Origin: Lytechinus pictus
Taxonomy: Eukaryota
NCBI RefSeq assembly: GCF_037042905.1
Contig: NC_087250.1
Location: 4,528,001-4,592,000 of the forward strand
Direction of reading: 5' to 3'
DNA: 64,000 nucleotides
Position numbers and translations under genes: made by a program
The notes under the pieces: generated by a model
Database searches by the model: none
Told to the model about the DNA's origin: nothing
What the model saw: only the letters and a program-made list of their open reading frames with translations
In this document: one piece after another, positions 3,315 to 56,900 of the stretch
Position numbering within the stretch: the first letter of the stretch is position 1
Layout: every line of letters starts with the position of its first letter

Positions 3315-4510
3315 TTCTTTGCAATGTATACCTGATTGGTCCAATGTGATTTAAAAGGTCATCGGAGTTGGAACTTGCAGTAGTAAATTCAAGCGTTTTT
3401 CACATAATGTTGCCAAATAATTACTAAAATAATCATGTTTCTTTTTAATAAAATCTATTTCATTATTGTGTGACAACATAAAAGAAAGATGATATGTCGT
3501 ATTGGCTTGTAGATCAACATCGTCAACATCACTATCTACTTCTTCTTCATCATGATCGTCATTTTCATCATCATCATCATACATCATATCAACGTCATCA
3601 TTATCATCGTCGTCACCATTGCCAGTGTTGTATTGTTATCATCACCACAATCATTATTAAAGGGTAGTGAACTGTGTGTTATTAATACATAGTTTTCAGA
3701 TTTCTACTCATACTACTGAGAATAAATTGACCTTTAATTGTATTTGTATAGAAAAACTAAAAGGTTTTGAGTGGAAAAGTAATTGTTTTGCTACTTGGTA
3801 ACATAATTATTGCAATATAAATGTATCGAGTAGTTAATTAGCATGTTATCATTCAAGTGGGCCTATATTACTAGACTACACTAACATTATGGGTGAGGAA
3901 ACTGGCCAGGTATGAGTAGTCGAGGACTCAAGATGGCGCTATTTGTTCCTATCTGCTTTAAAACCAATAGTTCCCACTGTCATGATTCGCGTTACGATTT
4001 AAACAGTGGTCTAAATCGTAAGTTAATCGTAAAGTGATCGTGTCAGATCATATCAAATCGTGAGGTCATGCCAATGATTAATTGAAAAAAAAAACTGTTT
4101 GGAAGGCTCAAATTGTTTCACGATCAGCCACGCAAGGCTAATCGAAAGACACAAAGAACGATCTAATTGATAATGATGATGATGATAATAATGATATTGT
4201 AATTAGTGTTATTATCATTATCATTCCTATCATAAATATCATTGTTATCATTACATTGCCCTTTAAATAGACATTTCCTGTCTCTTCTTCATATCAGGAG
4301 CTCTAAGTTTACTATTGTGACGTAATAATCACGATTATATAGAGTCACGTCTTTTCGAACACATATCCATTGTTCTTTAAGGCTTCGGTTTGTTGGTATG
4401 GCCCCATTTTCTGTGTTGAATTGTGTCATGGAAGATTTTTCTGTAGCTTCAAGGTCGAGTTTGTGACAGAATACAAGTTCTGTAAAAAAAATTCGATGGT
4501 CATCACAGAG

Positions 4511-12613: not shown

Positions 12614-12685
12614 GTCTCTGTGGTCTAGTGGTTAAGGCACCGGCGTTCAAAGCTGGGGGCCCGGGTTCGATTCCCGGCAGAGGCA
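12614..12685 (+). tRNA. tRNA-like gene with TCA anticodon (opal-suppressor-type) or tRNA-derived repeat head
   Basis: 72-nt cloverleaf: acceptor GTCTCTG/CAGAGGC+A, D-arm GTCT-AGTGGTTA-AGGC, anticodon arm CCGGC-GTTCAAA-GCTGG, 4-nt variable loop, T-arm CCGGG-TTCGATT-CCCGG; T7 run directly after. Confidence 0.6.
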
Positions 12686-22500: not shown

Positions 22501-25500
22501 ACGGTGTTGAGAGCGTGAAAGGGCTGCTGAACTGAGCTCCAACACCAAGCGTAATATTATTTTTCATTGAAATGTATTCTAACTCTAATGATTTGCTCTC
22601 ATCTTAAATGTAAAAGATAATTTTACGGAGATGGTTCGTCGTGTTCGCCCCCTGTTCGTAAGCTACAGTTCATCAACACCAACACTGAACTTTAAATCAC
22701 GATTCTCCCAATTCCTGGGGGTCGGTGTTGCTGAATAGGGAAATTGCTTGTAGATCATCAACACCATGCAGCCACAGTGCAGTGTTGGGTTCAGCAGATG
22801 ACAATCAACACCAGCCTTCAACACAAACTGCCGGAAATACACCATATTTTCCGAGGTCATTCTCAACACCAGCCTGATTCAAGTACGGTGTTGTCACAAC
22901 ACCAACACTAACCCAGGGAGCTCCGGCCCGCTCAGCGGGCCGGAGCCCATGGGCTTACCGTGTAATTCACCATACCCACGGTAGTAGCGTGAAGTATGGT
23001 CTAAATACTTATCCGAATAAATAGTTAAAACAGAAATTAAGCACTTACCACGATTATATGGATGAAGGTCTAACGAGTGGCAGCTTCCTGACATCGAGGC
23101 ACAGACTGGAACCTCAAAAAACGAAAAGTTCTGTCGCGGTAGCTCTCCTTCTTTCAGAATTCATAGCAAAATGGCCGTTCGAGACCGGTACCGAGGGTGT
23201 AGGTCGCATGCGCGAATTTGACAAAGTCTATATGCGCTAGTGCTATTAGCCTCGGTCTCAATCGGCCATTTTGTTTGTCTCAATCGGCCATTTTGTTTTG
23301 AATTCTGAAAGAGGAGAGCTACCGCAACAGAACTTTTCGTTTTTTGAGGTTCCATGGCAGTCTGTGCCTCGATGTCAGGAAGCTGCCACTCGTTAGACCT
23401 TCATCCATATAATCGTGGTAAGTGCTTAATTTCTGTTTTAACTATTTATTCGGATAATTATTTAGACCATACTTCACGCTACTACCATGGGTATGGTGAA
23501 TTACACGGTAAGCCCCTGGGCTCCGGCCCGCGCAGCGGGCCGGAGCTCCCTGGGTTACACCAACACCAGATTTCAACACTGTACTTGAAAATCATCCAAT
23601 GACTGTTGCCTTGCCATTGGTATCGCATACTCGTTCCCACTCACACGTATTGCGAGGTTAGTATTAGTCACTCACACAAGCTAATTACGAGGTTAGTTAG
23701 TATGTTATACTGTGCAGTGACTGGTGTTAAGTACTACTTTACTACTACTTACAGTACACGAATATACTAGCGTCGGACTGTACGCGCACAGAAGCTGACT
23801 CCGGGATCTTTCGGAGGGGATCAATGGTTGCAGTTACCGATTATCTGCAAGCGCAAAGAAAATTCCACTGTAGATTGTAGGTCCTAAATATGCAGCTTAT
23901 AAGTACTGTTCCAGATCACTAGATATTCTGGAATTTAATTGTCTATATCCACTATCCAGTCCAAATTCTGCCAGATTCTTCAAGTTCAAAATTGAAGGAA
24001 GCAGACTACACAGACATGAAAGAAGGAGTCCGACGTCGCGACTAATTCTGCGCATCAGAATAGTATGGTATTTTTAAATAGGCACATTTGATGCTTGTAT
24101 TTCCTTCTTCAATTTCTTCTAGTTATGTGACGGTAGGCCTATGACATATCTCGTACTTACTGTGAAAGGCCTAGCCAGCTGCAAAGGACGAGGGCGTTTC
24201 TGGAAATTCTGGTCTTGAACTACATTTTTTTCTTGTTTTTCTCCTTTATTTTCTATATTAATCGACACATTTGCATCCCCCGGTGCATGCAGCCTCTCTA
24301 TTTTACCCCATCTTTATTTTTGTTTTCCCATTAGACTTAGTTTTAGTTCCTCTTTCCCTTCCCATTATTTTCCTTCTCTCTCGATTTCTTTTCCCCTTAT
24401 TGCTGGGGGATACCAAGGGTGACATGGATAGAAAAGCAAACTTACTTGATCGACCCCCCCCCCCCTTGGCCCCATTGGAAATTATGCGAGTAGTCTTGTC
24501 TTGTCTTGGGTTAAGTCGGCATATGCAGACTTGCTGTACTCCGCCAACTTTATCAATTATCAATTCTCCAATGAACCAGTTTCTAACGTTCTCAACACTG
24601 TGTATATTATGCCGGGATATTATGTTGACTGTCAAACAAATATCCAACAAACTATAGTTTCCAACATTGTGTCAATGTTAACTGTCAACAACTCTCCAAT
24701 AAACTATTCAAATTACGCTGTCCACGTTGTGCCATTGTCCGTTGTTCAACAACTCTCCATCAAACTAGTTTCCAACTTTGTCAACGTTGTGCCATTGTCG
24801 ACTGTCCAACAAATCTCCAAGAAAATAGTTTCCAACGTTGTTCCTTTGTCGGTTGTTCAGCAACTCTCCATCGAACTAGTTTCCGACGTAGTCAACGCTG
24901 TGCCTTTGTTGGCTGTTCAACACCTATCCAATCAAACACGCGTTTCCAACGTTGTGACGTTGTTGGCTGTCCAACAAATCTCCAACACACTAGTTTCCAA
25001 TGTTGTGCCATTGTCTGTTGTTCAACAACTTTCCAACGTTGTGTCATCGTCGACTATCCTACTGATCTCCAATCTACCAGTTTCCAACGTTGTGCCAGTG
25101 TCAGTTGTTCAACAACCTCCCATCTAACTAGTTTCCAGCTTTATCAACGTTGTGTCATTGTATACTATCTAACTGATCTCCAATCTACCAGTTTCCAACG
25201 TTGTGCCATCGTCGACTATCCAACAAATCTCCATCGAACTAGTTTCTAGCTTTGACAACGTTGTGCCATAGTTGGTTGTTCAACAACTTTCCATCGAACT
25301 AGTTTCCAACGTTGCCAACCTTGTGTCATCGTCGACTATCCGACTAATCTCCAACCTACTAGTTTCCATCGTTGTGCCATTGTCGACTGTCCAACAACTC
25401 TCCAACTAACAAGTTTCCAACGTTGCCAACGTCGTGTCATTGTTGATTGTTCAACAACTTTCCAGCGAACTAGTTTCCAACGTTGCCAACGTTGTGCCTT

Positions 25501-28500
25501 TGCTGGCTGTCAACAACTATCCAATCAAACGTGTCTCCAACGTTGTGACATTGTCGACTGTCCAACAACTCTCCAACTTACTAGTCTCCAACGTTGTGCC
25601 ATTGCCGACCGTCCAACAAATCTCCAACAAACTAGTTTCCAACTTTGTCAACGTTGTGCCATTGTCGGTTGTTCAACAACTTTCCAGCGAACTAGTTTCC
25701 AACGTTGCCAACGTTGTGCCTTTGCTGGCTGTTCAACAACTATCCAATCAAACTTGTTTCCAACGTTGTGACATTGTCGACTGTCCAACAACTCTCCAAC
25801 TAACAAGTTTCCAACGTTGCCAACGTCGTGTCATTGTTGATTGTCCATCATCTTTCCATCAAACTAGTTTCCAACGTCGATTCAACGTTAATCCATCAAG
25901 TTTTTCCAACGTCCAACGACTTTCAAGTTTCCAACGTGGAGCCAAAGTTGGCTTGTTACCTGGGTTATTTAAGATAAGTCTACCAAGTAGAGTCCAAAGA
26001 TTTGAAAGACATTATGCTGAAGTAAGCATAGAAATACACAAGCACGTTCATTTCATTTGAAATCTCTTGATGTTTTTCGGCAACTGTTTTGTGTGAAGGT
26101 GCGTGTGTGTGTGTGTGCATTTTTTGTCAAGAACAGTAGACGTAAAATGACCCTTTACCTGGGCAAAGCTGTAAGATTCCGTGGCCTGGAGCTCGCAAAA
26201 TAGAGCGCCGTTTTAGAATCATATGCCGGGTTAGCAGCGGCATGAAGTCCAGTCAAGGCCCCGTCGAAAGGCGTCCTTATCATTCCTGTAGAAAAATAGA
26301 TTAGACAATAAAATGCAATTATATCAAGTAATTGTTATTTCAAAATGTAATGTAATAACTGGATGAGTCGCATTTACTGAATACAAGCACACTATCTCTC
26401 TCTCTCTCTCTCTCTCTGTATATATATATATATATATAAATATATATATACTACTTATTCGTCTACTACTGTTACTACTACTACTGCACCTACTACAACA
26501 ACAACAACAACAACTACTACTAGTGGTAGTAGTAGTAGTATATACTATTACTACTATAATTGCAACTTCTTTCTACTCTCCTCCTAATCTCATGTTTTAT
26601 GCTGCAAGAACAACGGATTTTTACATAACCTACGTACTTAGTGACTTTGTTGCCCTCAGCAAAACTCTGTTCCCTCTTGTGATTGGCTGACCTGGGCGTG
26701 CGTTGAACTCTGTATCAACCATACCCGGATGTACCGAAAACACGCTGACCTTTGACCCCTCTAGTCTCCTTGCCAGACAGAACATCTGCATGATCTACTG
26801 GGAAAACATAAATAACCGATCAGAAACTTTCCGAAGCACTCACTTCGTCTAGTTTCCATTTTGTCTCATCCCATATTGTCTAAACCTATTCAAAAATAGT
26901 CTAAAACCAGTTCGAGTGATTACCTTTTATTTTCTATTCATATATTTATTCTTTATTTTTGTTTGCTTGCCAATTTTTTCATGGACAAAATATTTGGTGA
27001 TAACCTTTTTCTTTTTTGCTCGTTAAATTTTGCGTTAAATTTCCTTGGAAAAATAAACCCCCTTTCGTAAATTCCCGGATCCGCCCCTGGACAAAATAAA
27101 TATAAGACTAACTGATATCATACAAGGTGTAGAGTAGACCAAACGACAATTAGCCCTGTGTCGAACTATATATCTTTATTTAATAATAATATAGAACTTG
27201 TATGGCACAAGTATATCTACCTTTTTAGGTGCTCATTGCTCTCCTTTATTACCCCTGGCTAAGCTAGTCAACCTATTCCGGTGCGCACAACTTTTTGAGA
27301 AATCCTGCCGGTACCCATTTACCTCACCTGGATTGAGTGCCGTACAATGCGGGTAATTTTCTTGCTGAAGGAAAACACGTCATGGCTGGGAATCGAACCC
27401 ACGTCCCTCAGATTGAAAGACGAGAGTCTTAACCACTATATCACGACGTACCAACTATTGTATGTAACAAAAAAATAATTCATAGATCGACACCCTGTTA
27501 ATATCACGAAAATTATTTCTTAAAAAACAAACTCTAATTAACTTGCCTGGTATAGTTTCGTTGTCCCATAAATCATCATCTTATCTTTCTCATTGAAGCA
27601 TTGCAAATCTTTCGGATCCCACTTTGAATTCCGATACATTAAAGACGATATCAGAACAATCCGTGTATCGATACCAGTTGACTTCATAACCGGAAGTAAA
27701 TGAAGTATGAGCAGGAAGTGTGAGAGATAGTTGACCTGAAAGTGAATCTCGAATCCGTCTGCTGTCGGCTCTGAAAGGGAAGTAAATGAAGTATGAGCAG
27801 GAAGTGTGAGATAGTTGACCTGGAAGTGAATCTCGAATCCGTCTGCTGTCGGCTCTGAAAGAGAAGAAAATGAAGTATGAGCAGGAAGTGTGAGAGATAG
27901 TTGACCTGGAAGTGAATCTCGAATCCGTCTGCTGTCGGCTCTGAAAGGGAAATAAATGAAGTATAAGGAGAGAAATTATGAGAGAAAGTTGACCTGGAAG
28001 TAAACTTTGAATCCGCCTGCTGTCGGCTCTGGATGAGGACTTAAAGAAAAAACAAGAATTGACACGCTCAAGATTTCGGCAAAATCTGATTCGAAATTCA
28101 AAAAAAAAAAATATGGTTTTAAGTATTATATCAGTATTATGCAGGGGCTTCAGGAAAAGAACACGTACACACTGTGCAATGTGGATAATTATTTTCAACT
28201 CGTCGTCAACTACATTTTGAATATCACATTTGTATCTGATAAAATTGGCATAAACGCACAAGAGAAATCATCTGTTTGGGGCATCATCGAATCTCCCATT
28301 TGCACTTCACTACATTGTAGAAAGTCAAGTTATTATTAGGGTAGACGATTTTGGCGATTGATACGTACCATCTGGTCCCCATCCCATTCCAGCGTTGCAT
28401 ATTAGCACGTGGAGAGGATATCCCTTCGTCTTGTACTCCTCGACAAACGTCATAGTACTTGCTAATGACCCGAGGTCAAGGGTCATGAATTCTACATCCA

Positions 28501-47900: not shown

Positions 47901-50900
47901 GCATCTGATCAAATTTATTTTTCCAAAATTTCAACATCACATTTATTTTCTTATGTATTCTATTATTTTCTATTTTTTTATGTATTTCTTTGTTTTTCTA
48001 CTTTTTGTTTTTTAATGTTTTTTCATTGAAAATTGTCGGAGACTCTATTTTGACCATAAACAAGATAAAATCAATTGATTTTAAGCAGTAAAGGAAAAAT
48101 AATGATACATTTTATGAATTTTGGCTAAAAAACTATTTGCATTGGATTTGTACACGAAATTCACGTTTTTGAGAAAATTTGGGTTTGCATGCACTTACGA
48201 AATGTTGCGTAATTTCGGAACCGCGTACCCGGGGATCACAATTTTGGTCTCAAAAGTTGCGCGAGACTTAAAAGTAAAAGGTCAGCGAGCGACGCAGTCA
48301 ACAAATTTCGAGCGGTGTATTTAACGTGAAAAATGTCGAGGGGGCCGAATCAGCCTCCCCCCAGTCTTCTTAGGGTTAAACCCCGCAATCTTGTCAATGT
48401 GTCACACCTGAATAAATTCAAATGGACATAACTTGTGTCGAATGGTGACTCTCTCAACTCACTACTGTAAAACTAAATAAATGACCATGGAAGACAATTA
48501 TTATTTAGTTCAACAAATAAAATATGTTTAGTTTTATTACTCGTTTTCCGGCTTCAACTTCCAACATTTAAATTCAATCTTCTGGTTTTGGTGGACCAGA
48601 ATAAACAGAAGATAAACAATAATAACAAAAATATATTCAACTCGAAGGAAGTTACACAATAGTATATATATGGTTACAAAACAATGCTTTAAGTCTCTGG
48701 AGGGTATAAATAAAATAACCCACTTTAATCAACTGTTGCTTCCTGCTAAAAATTCATGAGGAGTAACGAATGAGTAAAACGAGCGATGATAAACGACCAT
48801 CATCAGATCTTGTCAGCGAGGGTGCTGTCCGTTCTTGGTGGGTGCCCTCTAATAAACCTTTACTCCTACTCTTGACTGGTCTGGTCAATGGCTGAAAATG
48901 AGCTGCCAGACTTCTTTACTTCTGAAGAACCACTGGGTGAACTCCCAGGTAGATGAAGAAGAACCCATCTACAATTAAACAATTTCCAAAACTTAAAAAG
49001 TCTACGGAATACATATAGGACAATAACCATAACATAATAGGTTATCTATATTCAAGGAAACATCATTTCCCTAGCTTAATTCAAGTATAATCTAGAATGA
49101 CATAATTCGGTCATTGAAAAGAAAGCATCATCATTTCTCTTAAATCTAACATTTCATACAAAGAAATTCCATGACATGAGAAACACTTTCCATAATCCAT
49201 TAATGCTTAGGAAAAGCAAAGTTTCTTATATATTTTAAGAATATCATTTTAAGACCTTTCAATATTTCAACAGATGGAATTATTGTTGACATATAATAAT
49301 CTTTTAATGAAAAAATATAGTTAGCATCTTTCACATCTCACATTTTAGAGGTTTTCTTTGACCTTTTGTTATTCTCAATGAATAATAAAAATCCAAGACA
49401 TAAATGAGACAAAAAAACAACTAAACTTACAGTTTGACTGGGATGACTAAATGCAGGAAATCAGGAACAGGCCTCCATGTTGGTTTAGTGAATCTTGACT
49501 CTGGAATATAGTTTTATTGCAGCGCAAGTGTTTGGCTTAAAACTCTAACTCTCCATTTCCAATCACCCAACTGGACCCAAGGACCAATAGGTCCTGCCTG
49601 TGTGAAAGCTGTGCAGATAGTGAGGTACTCCTGCTAAAACAGGCAACCCACCCAGTTCAAAAATGCTGAGTATGTTAATTACAATTAAGTGCGATGGAGC
49701 CTAACCACTGAGCCTAACTACTCACTATTCACTCCAGAGCACTATTGTGCATTACATAATACAAAGGATTAAGAATACACTTGAGGGGGAAGGTTGAATC
49801 TCTAACATCACCCCCTCCTTAAGAAAATATTTCATATTTACATTAAATATTCAATCTATCCCCAAAAGTGGATTGACATAGAAATAAATCTAAGCTCTCT
49901 TGCTTTACTTAAACTTAATTTAAACTCAAACTGCCCTGCTGAGAAAATCCGCGCCAACATTCTCCGAACCTGGTATAGCTTCAATATGGAACCTGTAAGG
50001 TTGGAGAGATAAAGCCCACCTCATGATTCTACTATTAGTCGACTTAGACTGGTTAAGGTAGACGAGGGGTTTGTGATCTGTCTCCAATATGAACTCTCGT
50101 CCATCTAGGTATACCTGAAATTTACTAATTCCCCAAACGATTGCGAGACATTCGCGTTCAATGGCAGAGTACGCTTGCTCCCTGGGAAGTAACTTTCTGC
50201 TGGCATAAGCAACAGGGCGTTTTCCTTCTTCTTTTTCTTGAAGGAGAACGGCTCCGATACCTGTTGACGAGGCATCAGTGCGAATGATGAAGGGCTTAGC
50301 GACATCAGCTAAGCAAAGAACTGGAGCTGTAGACAAACAGTCTTTCAACTGCTGAAAAGCCTTCTTGTCTGATTCACTCCAAACAAGCTTGTTGGGCTGA
50401 CGACCTTTGGTCTTGTCTGTCAGAGGAGCTGCAATTGATGCAAAATCAGGGATAAACTTGCGGTAGTAGTTGATCAGCCCGATGAACGATCTCATCTGCT
50501 TCTTTGTCTCTGGCGGTGGAGCGTTGCGAATCTTTTCCACCTTGTCTTGCATCGGTAGAAGCTTGTCCTCTCCCACGATGTGGCCTAGATATTCAATCTG
50601 GTTACATCCTATTTGACACTTACTTGGCCGTGCCGTCAAACCAGCTGAACGAAGTCTGTTGAAGACTTCTCCAAGAACATGGAGATGTTCCTCCCATGTA
50701 CGAGTATGGATGAGTATGTCATCCAAGTAGTTATGAACGCAAGGCATACCTTTGAGCAGTGATCTCATTACCCGACTGAACGTTGCCGGCGCATTAACAA
50801 GACCGAAAGGCATCCTGCAAAACTGGTACAGTCCACTTGGACTACGGAACGCAGTCTTCTCTTTAGCATCCTCGGATTAGGGAATCTGCCAGTACCCTTT

Positions 50901-53900
50901 AGATAGATCTACTTTTGAGAAGTACTTACATCCTGATAGACTTGCGAAAATCTCATCACTGTTGGGAATGGGTTCTGCGTCGAACACTGTCACTCGATTC
51001 AATCGACGAAAATCTACGTAGAAACGGTTTGTCCCATCAGCTTTTCCAACTAACACAATTGGCGATGAATAAGGAGACTCAGACTGCTCAATCACTCCCA
51101 TCTCGAGCATCTTCTTGACTTCTTGCGAGCATGTGCAGTGGGGTATGGTCTCTGACGTACTGGCTCATCTGTAGTCAGCTTGATTGAATGAGTGCCCAAC
51201 TTACACTCTCCTGGAAGATCAGTAAGGACTTCCCTGTAATCAAGTAACAAAGACTTTACCTCACGCTTCTGCTCCTTAGATAAGTTCTTGCACACTGAAA
51301 CATCTTCTGTCGTCTCAGTTGCTTCAAGTGGAGGGAGATGAATACTGATGGACTTGAGCTTCCCTGACATCGGACTAGCTTCACTGTCATCATCCTCGGT
51401 CACGACAACAGCTTGAGCGCTAACCGCTGGATCTTCATCACCCGTCAAAGACTCTTCTCTGTCTTCTTCTCTGCTGATATAACGTTTCAACAAATTAGCA
51501 TGGAAAGTCTTAAGTTTTCCATTAATGTCTAACCTATAATCCTGATCACTGAGCTTGTGCACAACAGTGAATGGACCTTTCCACTGTACTAACAATTTGT
51601 TGTGTTTAGTAGGTAACAACAACAAAACTTGATCTCCTACCTGAAATCTTCTCTCCCTACTCTTCGAGTTGTAGTACTTTGAACTTCTTTCCATCGACTT
51701 CCTCAGCTCTTGCTGTGCAACCTCTAACGTCGATTCCAGTCGTTCCTTCAGCTCGACTACATACTGGTAGGTTGATTTCAACTCCTCATTCTGCTGCTTA
51801 CCCGTCCAAAGTTCCTTGAGAATCATTAAGGGTCCTCTTACAGTGCGTCCGTACAGGAGTTCGAAAGGTGAGAAACCCATAGAAGCCTGAGGAGCCTCCC
51901 TGTAAGCAAACAAAATAGGTGCGAGATACCGATCCCAATCAGAGGGACAGTCTGAACAAGTTCTTCGTAAAATCTTCTTCAACGTGCCGTTGAATCGTTC
52001 AACGAGCCCATTGCAGGCAGGGTGATATGGGGTCGTCATCATTTGCTTTATTGAAAGCAACTTCCCAATATCCTTCATAAGATCAGAGGTGAACTGAGTG
52101 CCCTGATCTGACAAAATCTCCTGTGGTACACCGACTCTGGAGAAAATCTGAACAAGTGCCTCTGCAACAGTAGTTGTCTCTATGTTGGGCAAGGCTACCG
52201 CCTCTGGGTACCTAGTAGCACAATCAACCACTGTAAGAATATACCTATTCTTCCTGGAAGTGATAGGTTGAATCGGTCCTATCAAATCAACAGCTATTCT
52301 CTTGAATGGAACATCGATAATTTGCATCTTGCCAAGAGGAACTCGTGGGACCCTTCCCTTGCTAATAGTTCTCTGACAGATATCACACGACTGGCAGAAT
52401 CTACTCACATCTGCTTGTAATCCTGGCCAAAAGAAACTCAACATTATCTTATCTGAAGTCTTTTTGACACCCTGATGTCCACCCATAATACCTTCATGTG
52501 CCAGTTTCATAACAACCTTCCGATAGGGCTTAGGCACAACAAGTTGCACAACCTGGTTTCCATTCACAACACTACTTGGTTGGAAAACTCTATGCAGCAA
52601 ACCACCCTGAAAGAAAAAATAATTTCTCTTACCTTCTTTGCTACCATCCTCAGTCTCAGCAAGTTCTCTTGCCTTCTTAAGTGTAGGATCTGCTAACTGT
52701 GCTTCCTGTATATCCTGTGGAGAAACTTCTGGAATGGGAGACATTACCTTCAAAGGAGCTTGCTTTCTCTCAGCAGCTTTAACCTGTGACCTCGTCTCAA
52801 CAGCCATCCCCACCTCAGACAAAGCATTATCTGTGACAACATTACCTGATGTCGGCATTCCCCAATTTGGATTCGGCGCATCTGGAGGAAGAACATTCTG
52901 GATATTTCCTACAATAACATCAAACAGTGGTGCTCGTACACAAAGCGCCACAACGGTTCCTACAAAAAACGGACAATCAATATGTATCGTAGCCGTAGGA
53001 TACCAACGTACCGTACCATCAATGAGAATACACAGCTTGTATTTCCCAGTCATCTGATCCTTCTTGACTAGTTTCTTCCGAATCACAACACAAGTACACC
53101 CTGTGTCTCTAAGAACAGAAACTGTCTGAGAATTCACAATACCATCAGTAACAGGCATTAGTTCGCGTAACTTACCTTTACAAGTCGCACACATCTCAGA
53201 TATTTTCTCCTTCTGTTTCTTCCTCTGTTTCCTCGTAGGTCTTGTCTGGTCCATACCTGAGGCAGACATCATGACAAACAGCCCACTCTCAAGCTGGGAT
53301 GTATCACTGCCATCACCTAAATCTTTAGAAGAAGAACACGTAGGACATGGATCATGAGATTTAGTCTTACCTGAAGACTTCCTATGTTTATTGGTTTTGG
53401 ACCCAATATCTACAAAACTTCCACCCTTCTCAGGTTTTGATTTAGAACTTGACTTACAATTTCTTGCAAGGTGACCCATTTGATCACACAGATAGCAAGG
53501 ACCAATTTGCTTTCGGCCCTTAGGCTTTTCCCTATGAAAACCATCACTCTTTGTTTCAGACTTATGAGGTGTCATTACTTTGGTTTCCTTTCTTGGACCC
53601 TTGAAATGACCACCATGTGCTGAAATATAAATCTGAGCAGTTTCAGTCATTTCCCTTGTCGACTGAGGAGTACGCTCTCTCAGGTAAATAGCTAATCCTG
53701 GATTTATCTGCTCTAAGAACTGCTGTCTAATTATCAAATCTTTCAACCCTTCAAATGATTTGGCTGTATCTGTCAGATCTACCCATCTCTCGAAGTAATG
53801 TTCTAACCTCGCCATAAACTGACCAGCAGACTCTCCTGTCTCTGGAGTTGCTCTGTAGAACTTCTTCCGGAAGTCATCTGCAGACATCTGGTATCTACGA

Positions 53901-56900
53901 AGGAGGGCGTCCTTGAGAGTTGAATACTTAGCAGCTTCATCTGGTGCCAACCTACTGTAGACTTCTAGAGCCTTCCCCTGTAGAAGTGCGCACCTAAATT
54001 AATGGCCCAACAATCACTTTGCCATTTCTGACTATTTGCGTACCTTTCAAAACGCTCTAGGTATGCATCTATGTTATCCCTACTATCGTCAAAGTGAGGT
54101 AACTTTGGGACTTTTGTCAAACTATGGGTTCGCATCCTGTTATTTCCTAACTGGGATTCATTACCCTTATTAGCCTGCACTAAGGCCAACTGTTTATCTA
54201 ATATATTTTCCTCTAACTGCTTTAACTCAATTTCCTGTCTCCTATCTTCCCTTACAGTTGCTCTCTCTTCTCTTGCTTGTTGTTCTCTATCCTTAATGAA
54301 ATCCAACAAGTCTTTACCCACTAATCCTAACTCCTTACCTAAGTTAATCAATTTTTCATCAATAGAATCCATTATGAGAACTTAACCAGGTAGAACTATT
54401 GTATCAAAAGGTTAAAATTCTATCTGAGAAAATAACTTCTTCCAAACACGCGCGCAAAGTTACGCAAAATGATTACTTACCAAAGAATCAAGAACACTTT
54501 AACCGACTTGGAAGACTTGCATCCGATTTCCGTTCTAATCACCAAATCACAACTATCCCTATTATTGAAGAGAATACAAAACATTCAAAGAGAAGTAGCA
54601 TTAACGATCAAAACGGTAAATAATATTCACATGAAATTACATTCTATGGAGTATCCTGCTTTGACTTGATAATATCTAATATATCCCATTATACAAAGCA
54701 AAAATAATGTCCAAGAACAATCTATGAATATTCTTAGGTAGAAAAATTCCAAATTTGTACTTCACAAAATGAGAATATCTATTTCACTTTTGGTAATAAA
54801 GAAGTATAAGAGGAAACCTAATTCTGCGAGAGGTCCCGGGTTCGACTCCCGGACAAGCCCCCAAAAATGTCACACCTGAATAAATTCAAATGGACATAAC
54901 TTGTGTCGAATGGTGACTCTCTCAACTCACTACTGTAAAACTAAATAAATGACCATGGAAGACAATTATTATTTAGTTCAACAAATAAAATATGTTTAGT
55001 TTTATTACTCGTTTTCCGGCTTCAACTTCCAACATTTAAATTCAATCTTCTGGTTTTGGTGGACCAGAATAAACAGAAGATAAACAATAATAACAAAAAT
55101 ATATTCAACTCGAAGGAAGTTACACAATAGTATATATATGGTTACAAAACAATGCTTTAAATCTCTGGAGGGTATAAATAAAATAACCCACTTTAATCAA
55201 CTGTTGCTTCCTGCTAAAAATTCATGAGGAGTAACGAATGAGTAAAACGAGCGATGATAAACGACCATCATCAGATCTTGTCAGCGAGGGTGCTGTCCGT
55301 TCTTGGTGGGTGCCCTCTAATAAACCTTTACTCCTACTCTTGACTGGTCTGGTCAATGGCTGAAAATGAGCTGCCAGACTTCTTTACTTCTGAAGAACCA
55401 CTGGGTGAACTCCCAGGTAGATGAAGAAGAACCCATCTACAATTAAACAATTTCCAAAACTTAAAAAGTCTACGGAATACATATAGGACAATAACCATAA
55501 CATAATAGGTTATCTATATTCAAGGAAACATCATTTCCCTAGCTTAATTCAAGTATAATCTAGAATGACATAATTCGGTCATTGAAAAGAAAGCATCATC
55601 ATTTCTCTTAAATCTAACATTTCATACAAAGAAATTCCATGACATGAGAAACACTTTCCATAATCCATTAATGCTTAGGAAAAGCAAAGTTTCTTATATA
55701 TTTTAAGAATATCATTTTAAGACCTTTCAATATTTCAACAGATGGAATTATTGTTGACATATAATAATCTTTTAATGAAAAAATATAGTTAGCATCTTTC
55801 ACATCTCACATTTTAGAGGTTTTCTTTGACCTTTTGTTATTCTCAATGAATAATAAAAATCCAAGACATAAATGAGACAAAAAAACAACTAAACTTACAG
55901 TTTGACTGGGATGACTAAATGCAGGAAATCAGGAACAGGCCTCCATGTTGGTTTAGTGAATCTTGACTCTGGAATATAGTTTTATTGCAGCACAAGTGTT
56001 TGGCTTAAAACTCTAACTCTCCATTTCCAATCGCCCAACTGGACCCAAGGACCAATAGGTCCTGCCTGTGTGAAAGCTGTGCAGATAGTGAGGTACTCCT
56101 GCTAAAACAGGCAACCCACCCAGTTCAAAAATGCTGAGTATGTTAATTACAATTAAGTGCGATGGAGCCTAACCACTGAGCCTAACTACTCACTATTCAC
56201 TCCAGAGCACTATTGTGCATTACATAATACAAAGGATTAAGAATACACTTGAGGGGGAAGGTTGAATCTCTAACACAATGCAAATGGAGATATTGGCCCA
56301 TTGCCACTTCGGCCACACAGGCGAGTTACTCGAGGTGATGCAAATTCGTTAACATATATTAATATTCGTGTTCATAAATACTCACGAACTGTTATATAAA
56401 TAACTCTCGTCTGACACTACCAAGAAAATGTAGGATGAATATAACTCTTCGGTCTCGTGTTAAGCTTGCATTCGGGATCCTGTAGAAAATTAAGTAGGAA
56501 ATAAAGCATTTTTTCATGTGTGTGCATTCTTTTGTTTTCGCTTCAGGAATGGGTTCAAACATAATGTCTATTAGTATGGTGATAACCTTGAGTAGCCAGT
56601 CTGGCGATGCCTTTGGAGTCTTCTACGGCATTGGCAAATCAGGATATGCATTCGGGATGGCCCTTGTGCCACTGCTTGCTGATTACCTGATGGGTATATA
56701 CGGCTGGAGAGGGTCCTTACTGATCCTCGGAGGCATCATGGCACATCTGATACCTTTGGCATTGATGGTGGACTTCAAGGAAGTGGAGGACGAAATGGTT
56801 GGTGATAGAAACCCACATAATCCTGATAGGATGACGGAAGAGCTCTTGGATACGATCGACGAGGAATCAACGTGTGTGGATTCAAGTAAGCAGATAGAAT

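Follow-up and report, generated by a model that had tools for sequence, protein, structure and literature searches.

A 39-nucleotide primer-binding site matching the 3' half of tRNA-Pro in a Gmr1-like LTR retrotransposon, and its possible origin from a strong stop at G37

The window analysed here is a stretch of 64,000 nucleotides (nt) of Lytechinus pictus DNA (contig NC_087250.1, positions 4,528,001 to 4,592,000), and the subject is the primer-binding site (PBS) of a long terminal repeat (LTR) retrotransposon that it contains. The element is 7.9 kb long, lies on the minus strand and has its genes in the order protease, integrase, reverse transcriptase (RT) and RNase H (PR-IN-RT-RH). Its PBS, at 54825-54863 on the minus strand (in plus-strand letters TGCGAGAGGTCCCGGGTTCGACTCCCGGACAAGCCCCCA), measures 39 nt and is the complement of nt 38-76 of the host tRNA-Pro. 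Host tRNA-Pro genes with the anticodons AGG, CGG and TGG occur in clusters in the genome assembly (ARAGORN); those with AGG or CGG terminate in ...cgcttagggTGCGAGAGGTCCCGGGTTCGACTCCCGGACAAGCCC. Compared directly with these genes, the stretch is identical at 39/39 positions, namely nt 38-73 and the untemplated CCA. Because it is tRNA-sense on the plus strand, it is the PBS of a minus-strand element, and 4 nt (54864-54867) separate it from the 5' LTR at 54868-56275. At the position of nt 37 the primer site has c where tRNA-Pro has G, so that the likeness ends directly after the anticodon. The genome searched, an 812-Mb eukaryotic assembly of 368 contigs, holds 82 matches to a 29-nt core of the stretch (≤2 mismatches) vs 0 for the reversed control; folding of the RNA of the PBS region gave no distinctive stability (z = -1.26). 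The 39-nt tRNA-Pro-matching primer site in the window is thus confirmed as real. An earlier note, made from the letters of the window alone, had described an LTR retrotransposon PBS covering nt 38-76 of tRNA-Pro, with an edge one base short of G37 and just 3' of the anticodon. This description was borne out: an LTR pair is present with an integrase ahead of RT, the tRNA numbering is correct, nt 37 does differ, and the host genes match all 39 nt and not merely the last 18 or so.

The anatomy of the element can also be read directly. A 5-nt target-site duplication, CAATG, stands beside both LTRs (48395-48399 on the left and 56276-56280 on the right), and the 5' LTR and the 3' LTR (48400-49807), each 1408 bp and on the minus strand, align with 3 mismatches in 1408, the 3' LTR having TG...CA ends. 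In the sense of the element, the PBS is followed by a leader (54382-54824, defined by position only), then by an N-terminal gag piece of 138 amino acids (aa) in another frame (53965-54381), and by an open reading frame (51092-53998) with gag (CCHC region), the protease region and integrase (Pfam Integrase_H2C2 and rve at aa 488-660) that runs into the start of RT. RT and RNase H (49926-51164; Pfam RVT_1, RT_RNaseH and RT_RNaseH_2) form two open pieces, 49926-50876 and 50877-51164, with an in-frame stop between them, and a polypurine tract (AAGGAGGGGGTGA in element sense, 49808-49820) abuts the 3' LTR. All the features of an LTR retrotransposon are found here, i.e., a TG..CA LTR pair, a 5-bp duplication, a PBS after the 5' LTR and a polypurine tract before the 3' LTR. 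The window copy is damaged by one in-frame stop and by two frame changes, which lie at the two ends of the 51092-53998 piece relative to the adjoining pieces. Other copies of the family are 99% identical over their length and have a single frame of 1489 aa. The insertion is recent. In the window copy Integrase_H2C2 and rve precede RVT_1 and RT_RNaseH, an order which we take to be the defining trait of Gmr1-like Ty3/gypsy elements; the Gmr1-like label used here rests on this gene order and on the type of RT and RNase H. Three RNA runs (X9-X11; ribosomal-RNA-depleted long-read-pair libraries, which yielded no tRNA reads) gave 12, 1 and 8 read pairs on 53900-56400, all with the first mate on the plus strand. 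All 5/5 such reads over the PBS in X9 have G at 54845 (nt 58), and their source is a variant of a locus resembling L036 (see below).

Long primer sites are not restricted to the window copy. The last 18 nt of tRNA-Pro with CCA (≤1 mismatch) occur at 49 genome sites, 16 of which have the full upstream extension and one a decayed extension, while 10 match over 23 nt (nt 54-76) and 22 over 17-21 nt. In the 23-nt class, nt 58 is the sole variable letter (T in 7/10, A in 2/10 and C in 1/10), the kind of trace that miscopying opposite 1-methyladenosine at position 58 (m1A58) would leave. A pattern made of nt 38-60 has 42 matches in the genome: 21 tRNA genes, 1 pseudogene-like copy and 20 non-gene sites. 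The latter belong to the window family (11), the L033 family (2), L031 (1), L032 (1), L035/L037 (2) and a group of elements with short LTRs of about 190 nt (L034, L036 and L051). With about 20 sites in at least six families, the possibility of a one-off accident is rejected. The contiguous match to tRNA-Pro covers 39, 39, 39, 39, 40, 42, 40, 39 and 39 nt in the long-site loci L031-L039, and 19, 21, 18, 18, 19, 18, 18, 18, 19, 18 and 17 nt in the short-site loci L040-L050; these length classes, too, are direct observations. In all 13/13 tRNA-Pro-using loci that yielded both domains, integrase precedes RT, be the PBS short or long.

Outside the assembly, a degenerate form of the stretch was scanned over metagenome contigs and gave 2 matches, both to another tRNA-Pro variant (TTCAAAT, ACGAGCCC). 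Each has CCA, then 2-3 nt, then a TG-starting repeat, with the edges at nt 38 and nt 39, and no protein matches were found within 300 nt on either contig. The scan of viral_contigs for the stretch gave 0 matches.

Beyond nt 37, a search with the longest copy found only two CCA-bearing copies that match, L036 and L051. In L036, the match runs to nt 32 and nt 34 is G, which hints at an inosine footprint but is one case only. A similar footprint in L051 (G at nt 34) was rejected, as its extra G's are part of the open reading frame of a neighbouring Pao-type protease. L034 (1290-1724), L036 and L051 each contain an LTR-like unit of about 190 nt (TGTCAT...ATGACA) with a 39-nt tRNA-Pro site, and the sequence joined to it differs between the three; behind the unit of L034 stands a second, inverted copy, and the unit of L051 abuts the protease frame. 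L032 also has, at 3793-3831, a shorter tRNA-Pro copy of 34 nt (nt 43-76 plus CCA), which directly adjoins a purine-rich run resembling a polypurine tract, close behind the pol frame and with no LTR between. In L032, L040, L034 and L074, the last 10-22 nt of the LTR recur inverted directly after the PBS, and therefore the PBS would sit in the loop of a stem formed by U5 and the leader.

The RT-RNase H sequences of eight elements, all from this genome, were placed in a tree (6 further loci with broken or partial RT being left out), in which all five inner branches are well supported. One clade holds L044 and L042, with classic sites. The other holds L032 (39 nt), L049 (18 nt), the window family (39 nt), L033 (39 nt), L035 (40 nt) and L046 (18 nt). 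Two pairs of close relatives with different primer sites can be compared. L035 and L046 are 99.2% identical over 5.3 kb; L035 has the LTR, a perfect 40-nt site and the leader, while L046 has the LTR, 18 nt, about 165 unrelated nt, a decayed copy of the U5 end and long PBS, and the same leader as L035. The alignment score of this relic is 43, vs 3.7 +/- 5.5 for shuffled sequences, none of which (0/2000) reaches 43. L031 (39 nt) and L049 are 97-98.5% identical, and in L049 an 18-nt site is followed by 61 unrelated nt, by GGGACCTCTCGCA, which is complementary to nt 38-50, and by the same leader as in L031. In both pairs, the joints observed are the same: the break falls exactly after letter 18 of the PBS (nt 58/59), nt 37/38 being the edge of the long form. 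No source of the 61-nt and 165-nt inserts was found among the collected loci or the LTR end. In L037, a 40-nt site is fused to the distal end of pol, 5 nt overlapping close to the junction, and in L040 a 19-nt site is followed by an extension that keeps 13/21 letters. As indicated by the layouts of L046, L049, L037 and L040, it is the final 18 letters that stay fresh; the extension may be decayed, interrupted or perfect. In L033 (G000:C8:3460600-3470599), 12 nt of the distal PBS end (GACCTCTCGCAA) are repeated some 25 nt downstream of the 39-nt site, and this repeat resembles the relics in L046 and L049.

With regard to the origin of the long site, the ordinary replication cycle is the starting point: while the primer tRNA is still attached, its 3' end is copied by the plus strand as far as a base whose methylated pairing face stops RT. 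This base is normally m1A58, which limits the copy to 18 nt; in the long-PBS lineage, it can be hypothesized, copying continued past nt 58 and halted one base before 1-methylguanosine at position 37 (m1G37), a modification known from tRNA-Pro, giving 39 nt. The longer copy would be built into the DNA and thence into the next genomic RNA, and the whole 3' half of tRNA-Pro could then pair with the site. Since the copy would be present in both DNA and genomic RNA, the extension could be inherited and also rewritten from the tRNA, and such rewriting may be ongoing. As the minus strand would hold the complement of all 39 letters, a 39-nt site should tolerate a stop at nt 58 or at nt 37. Passage of nt 58 might be due to undermodified tRNA or to a tolerant RT. 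That plus-strand strong-stop DNA passed nt 58 to m1G37, and that this copy became a heritable long primer site, is the explanation which we consider somewhat probable from the sequences compared here.

Published excerpts on retroviral plus-strand synthesis provide a frame for this explanation. In them, the 18-nt strong stop of the plus strand depends on m1A58, the RT of murine leukemia virus (MLV) stops one nt before nt 58 of tRNA-Pro, and without m1A58 there is a second stop near nt 54, further copying giving DNA that is mismatched to the minus strand (excerpts of PMC8599865). Human tRNA-Pro is stated to have m1A58 (excerpt of PMC11251516). The length classes of 18, 23 (with nt 58 variable) and 39/40 nt are consistent with a stop before nt 58, one near nt 54 and one before nt 37, respectively. 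The host encodes TRMT61A-like, TRMT6-like and TRM5-family proteins. A host devoid of the m1A58 enzyme was considered as well; it is not supported, the TRMT61A-like and TRMT6-like genes being present and 18-nt sites being common.

Copies of other tRNAs in the same genome bear on whether RTs stop or err at modified positions. A generic pattern (T-loop, 11 N, CCA, 0-5 N, TGT) has 44 matches vs 8 in the control, among which 21 are of tRNA-Pro, 9 of tRNA-Leu(TAG) type and 4 of tRNA-Ser(AGA) type. One of the tRNA-Leu sites (L052-L060) is a true gene, whose sequence recurs in dozens of identical copies. Among the tRNA-Leu copies with CCA beside TGT-starting repeats, the edge lies at nt 38-42 in 5/8; L055 and L058 have a common repeat with different inner flanks. 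Three of the four Ser-type sites were compared with the host tRNA-Ser(AGA) gene. L062 (C14:28342800-28342970) covers nt 2-82 and is changed at G26, C32, U33, a variable-loop C and nt 51, L061 (G000:C5:48125615-48125785) spans nt 27-82, its altered letters being C32, nt 34 and that same C of the variable loop, and L063 (C28:127625-127795) ends at the variable-loop C. All three adjoin TGT-starting repeats, and L062 and L063 have a common repeat with different copy lengths. In human tRNA-Leu and tRNA-Ser, N2,N2-dimethylguanosine at position 26, 3-methylcytidine at positions 32 and 47d, m1G37 and m1A58 cause RT stops or miscopying, and the trio at positions 58, 37 and 26 is reported for all tRNA-Leu isodecoders (excerpts of PMC5066629). 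The Leu and Ser copies stop or have wrong letters at nt 26, 32, 37, 47d and 58. In L076 (G000:C17:5127445-5127540), which consists of tRNA-Leu(TAG) plus CCA in a flank that is not LTR-like, just three letters depart from the gene (G26>T, G37>T and A58>T), which is the pattern that miscopying of a fully modified tRNA would leave.

Several observations weigh against the derivation of the long site from a stop at m1G37. The edges of the eight tRNA-Leu copies scatter (nt 42, ~31, 41, 38, 40, ~51 and 39, with one decayed), and one of them extends beyond G37. At nt 34, which two of the tRNA-Ser copies reach, A or T is found, whereas inosine should have given G. The repeats that adjoin the Leu and Ser copies are candidate LTRs only, and no pol was found in the 5 kb inside the L060 repeat. 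The A at nt 58 is unaltered in every long tRNA-Pro site, while copying of m1A58 usually miswrites this letter; this favours undermodified templates or later correction. The methyl groups of the host tRNA-Pro are themselves inferred, m1G37 being a modification that tRNA-Pro generally carries. In the two sister pairs, L035/L046 and L031/L049, the change may have gone in either direction. Finally, all five Gmr1-like families with 39/40-nt sites fall within one clade of the eight-row RT tree, and therefore a single origin with an inherited edge at nt 38 is possible. The mechanism proposed in the earlier note, i.e., copying past nt 58 and a halt at m1G37, has accordingly stood in part: the length classes, the joints in the sister pairs and the stops and wrong letters in copies of other tRNAs argue for it, while the placement of all five Gmr1-like families with long sites in one clade, with an edge that may be inherited, argues against it.

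This last point leads to the alternative that fares best, although we consider it unlikely: the extension would have arisen once in the ancestor of the Gmr1-like clade and been kept because a 39-bp pairing aids the selection, packaging or annealing of tRNA-Pro, the edge being inherited with no rewriting. Besides the clade of five long-PBS families, it would account for the 21 extra letters, which are identical across families whose leaders are unalignable, and for the unaltered A58 of all long sites. L040 also speaks for it, as a decayed extension beside a fresh 19-nt site means that rewriting is not needed in every cycle. However, under such inheritance it would be surprising that L035 has a perfect 40-nt site while its close relative L046 has only a decayed relic, and that the same edge recurs in the short-LTR family and in the two contigs of other organisms, which match another tRNA-Pro variant. 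Moreover, the length classes of 18, 23 and 39 nt coincide with modified positions, and selection for pairing alone predicts no edge exactly one base before G37.

A second alternative, which is considered decidedly improbable, supposes that the primer is a 3' half of tRNA-Pro cut in the anticodon loop, the plus strand copying to its 5' end and so setting the length of the PBS. The site does correspond exactly to a 3' half with CCA included, and such a half could perhaps anneal without unfolding of a whole tRNA. However, the cut would be needed between G37 and U38, and anticodon nucleases are not known to cut there, but after pyrimidines or at other places in the loop. The Ser and Leu copies that adjoin similar repeats continue across the anticodon loop as far as nt 26/27 or nt 2, modified bases being changed in them, and therefore whole tRNAs were the templates there; position 58 has to be passed in either case. 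Very improbable, lastly, is another role for the extra 21 nt, such as a B-box (GGTTCGACTCC) binding TFIIIC to shield or target the element, or their persistence as a neutral leftover: the stretch does include the tRNA gene B-box, but this needs 11 nt only and leaves the contiguity with the CCA end and the nt-38 edge unexplained, and a neutral leftover would decay, yet the extension is perfect in at least five diverged families. No single one of these alternatives accounts for the sister pairs together with the length classes.

A wider proposal goes beyond the stop at m1G37 in tRNA-Pro and is put forward tentatively, with somewhat less than an even chance of holding in full. The RTs of LTR elements in this genome may often pass m1A58, so that the genome would contain, beside LTR ends, a fossil map of blocking modifications (nt 58, 54, 47d, 37, 32 and 26), and one Gmr1-like clade may have made the second strong stop of tRNA-Pro, at m1G37, its regular 39-nt site.

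Comparison with known systems shows which traits of the site are ordinary. As in the 18-nt PBS of retroviruses and other LTR elements, it matches a tRNA 3' end with CCA and lies a few nt after the 5' LTR; MLV and HTLV-1 (a human T-cell leukemia virus) use tRNA-Pro as primer as well, while HIV-1 (the human immunodeficiency virus of type 1) uses tRNA-Lys3 (excerpts of PMC8599865 and PMC11251516). The difference resides in its length, 39 and not 18 nt, and in its edge before G37 and not A58: the complementarity of a canonical site ends at or before nt 59, whereas here it extends to nt 38. According to the retroviral model, DNA copied beyond nt 58 is unable to complete the plus strand (excerpts of PMC8599865), whereas in the present case the longer copy belongs to the element itself. 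The stop of HIV-1 on tRNA-Lys3 near nt 54 without m1A58 is similar in that the next modified base sets the next stop, which the 23-nt class fits; that stop is an in vitro observation and harmful to the virus, whereas the products here are fixed in genomic copies, the main class of which ends at nt 38 (excerpts of PMC8599865). With Gmr1-like Ty3/gypsy elements the window element has in common the PR-IN-RT-RH order, RT and RNase H of the Ty3/gypsy type and the 5-bp target duplication.

Ohshima, Okada and colleagues are said to have put forward in 1993 a strong-stop-DNA model for the origin of tRNA-derived short interspersed elements, in which, as here, a tRNA with CCA is joined directly to the complement of an LTR end. 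That model deals with free retroposons from minus-strand strong-stop DNA, whereas the tRNA copy considered here lies inside a complete element. The half-tRNA priming of copia and Ty5 involves sites that match the anticodon arm of a cleaved tRNA, without the CCA end. The window site likewise corresponds to about half a tRNA, but it is contiguous with CCA and stops before the anticodon. Self-priming of the Tf1 type, with a PBS complementary to the 5' end of the element's own RNA, need not be invoked, as the site fits a host tRNA perfectly. Primer contacts outside the PBS are represented by the boxes of Ty1, the bipartite PBS of Ty3, and the primer activation signal (PAS) and A-rich loop of HIV-1. 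Pairing beyond the last 18 nt is common to these and to the window element, but theirs are short separate patches and here the duplex would be an unbroken 39 nt. A PAS is also mentioned for HTLV-1 (excerpt of PMC11251516). In the literature searched (long PBS, tRNA halves and strong-stop read-through; the original Gmr1 descriptions lay outside the search), neither a 39-nt PBS nor any statement on PBS length in the Gmr1-like group was found, and the part of Kojima 2024 that was available displays only about 15 nt of tRNA per PBS (PMC10886601).

The textbook rule, by which the PBS has 18 nt through the m1A58 stop and further copying is a dead end, was derived from a small number of retroviruses and yeast elements. 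In the present case, the next stop appears to have entered the genome of a natural lineage, and both outcomes are kept by sister elements, whose joints coincide with two positions that would be methylated. Should the proposed derivation be true, PBS length would report which tRNA modifications the RT of an element meets, and the tRNA modification maps of non-model animals could be inferred from genome sequence alone. It would also provide elements with a route to tolerate undermodified primers, plus-strand transfer no longer depending on whether A58 is methylated. Long sites would also be under-described by those LTR annotation tools that seek short PBS matches.

Elsewhere in the window, two minor features can be mentioned. 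At 12614-12685 on the plus strand there is a 72-nt cloverleaf tRNA that would read UGA by its TCA anticodon, and TTTTTT comes directly behind it; the tRNA scores 57 bits with the Rfam tRNA model and is labelled SeC by ARAGORN, yet it has an ordinary tRNA length. At 24700-25900 lies a diverged repeat array with spacings of 51, 60 and 111 nt.

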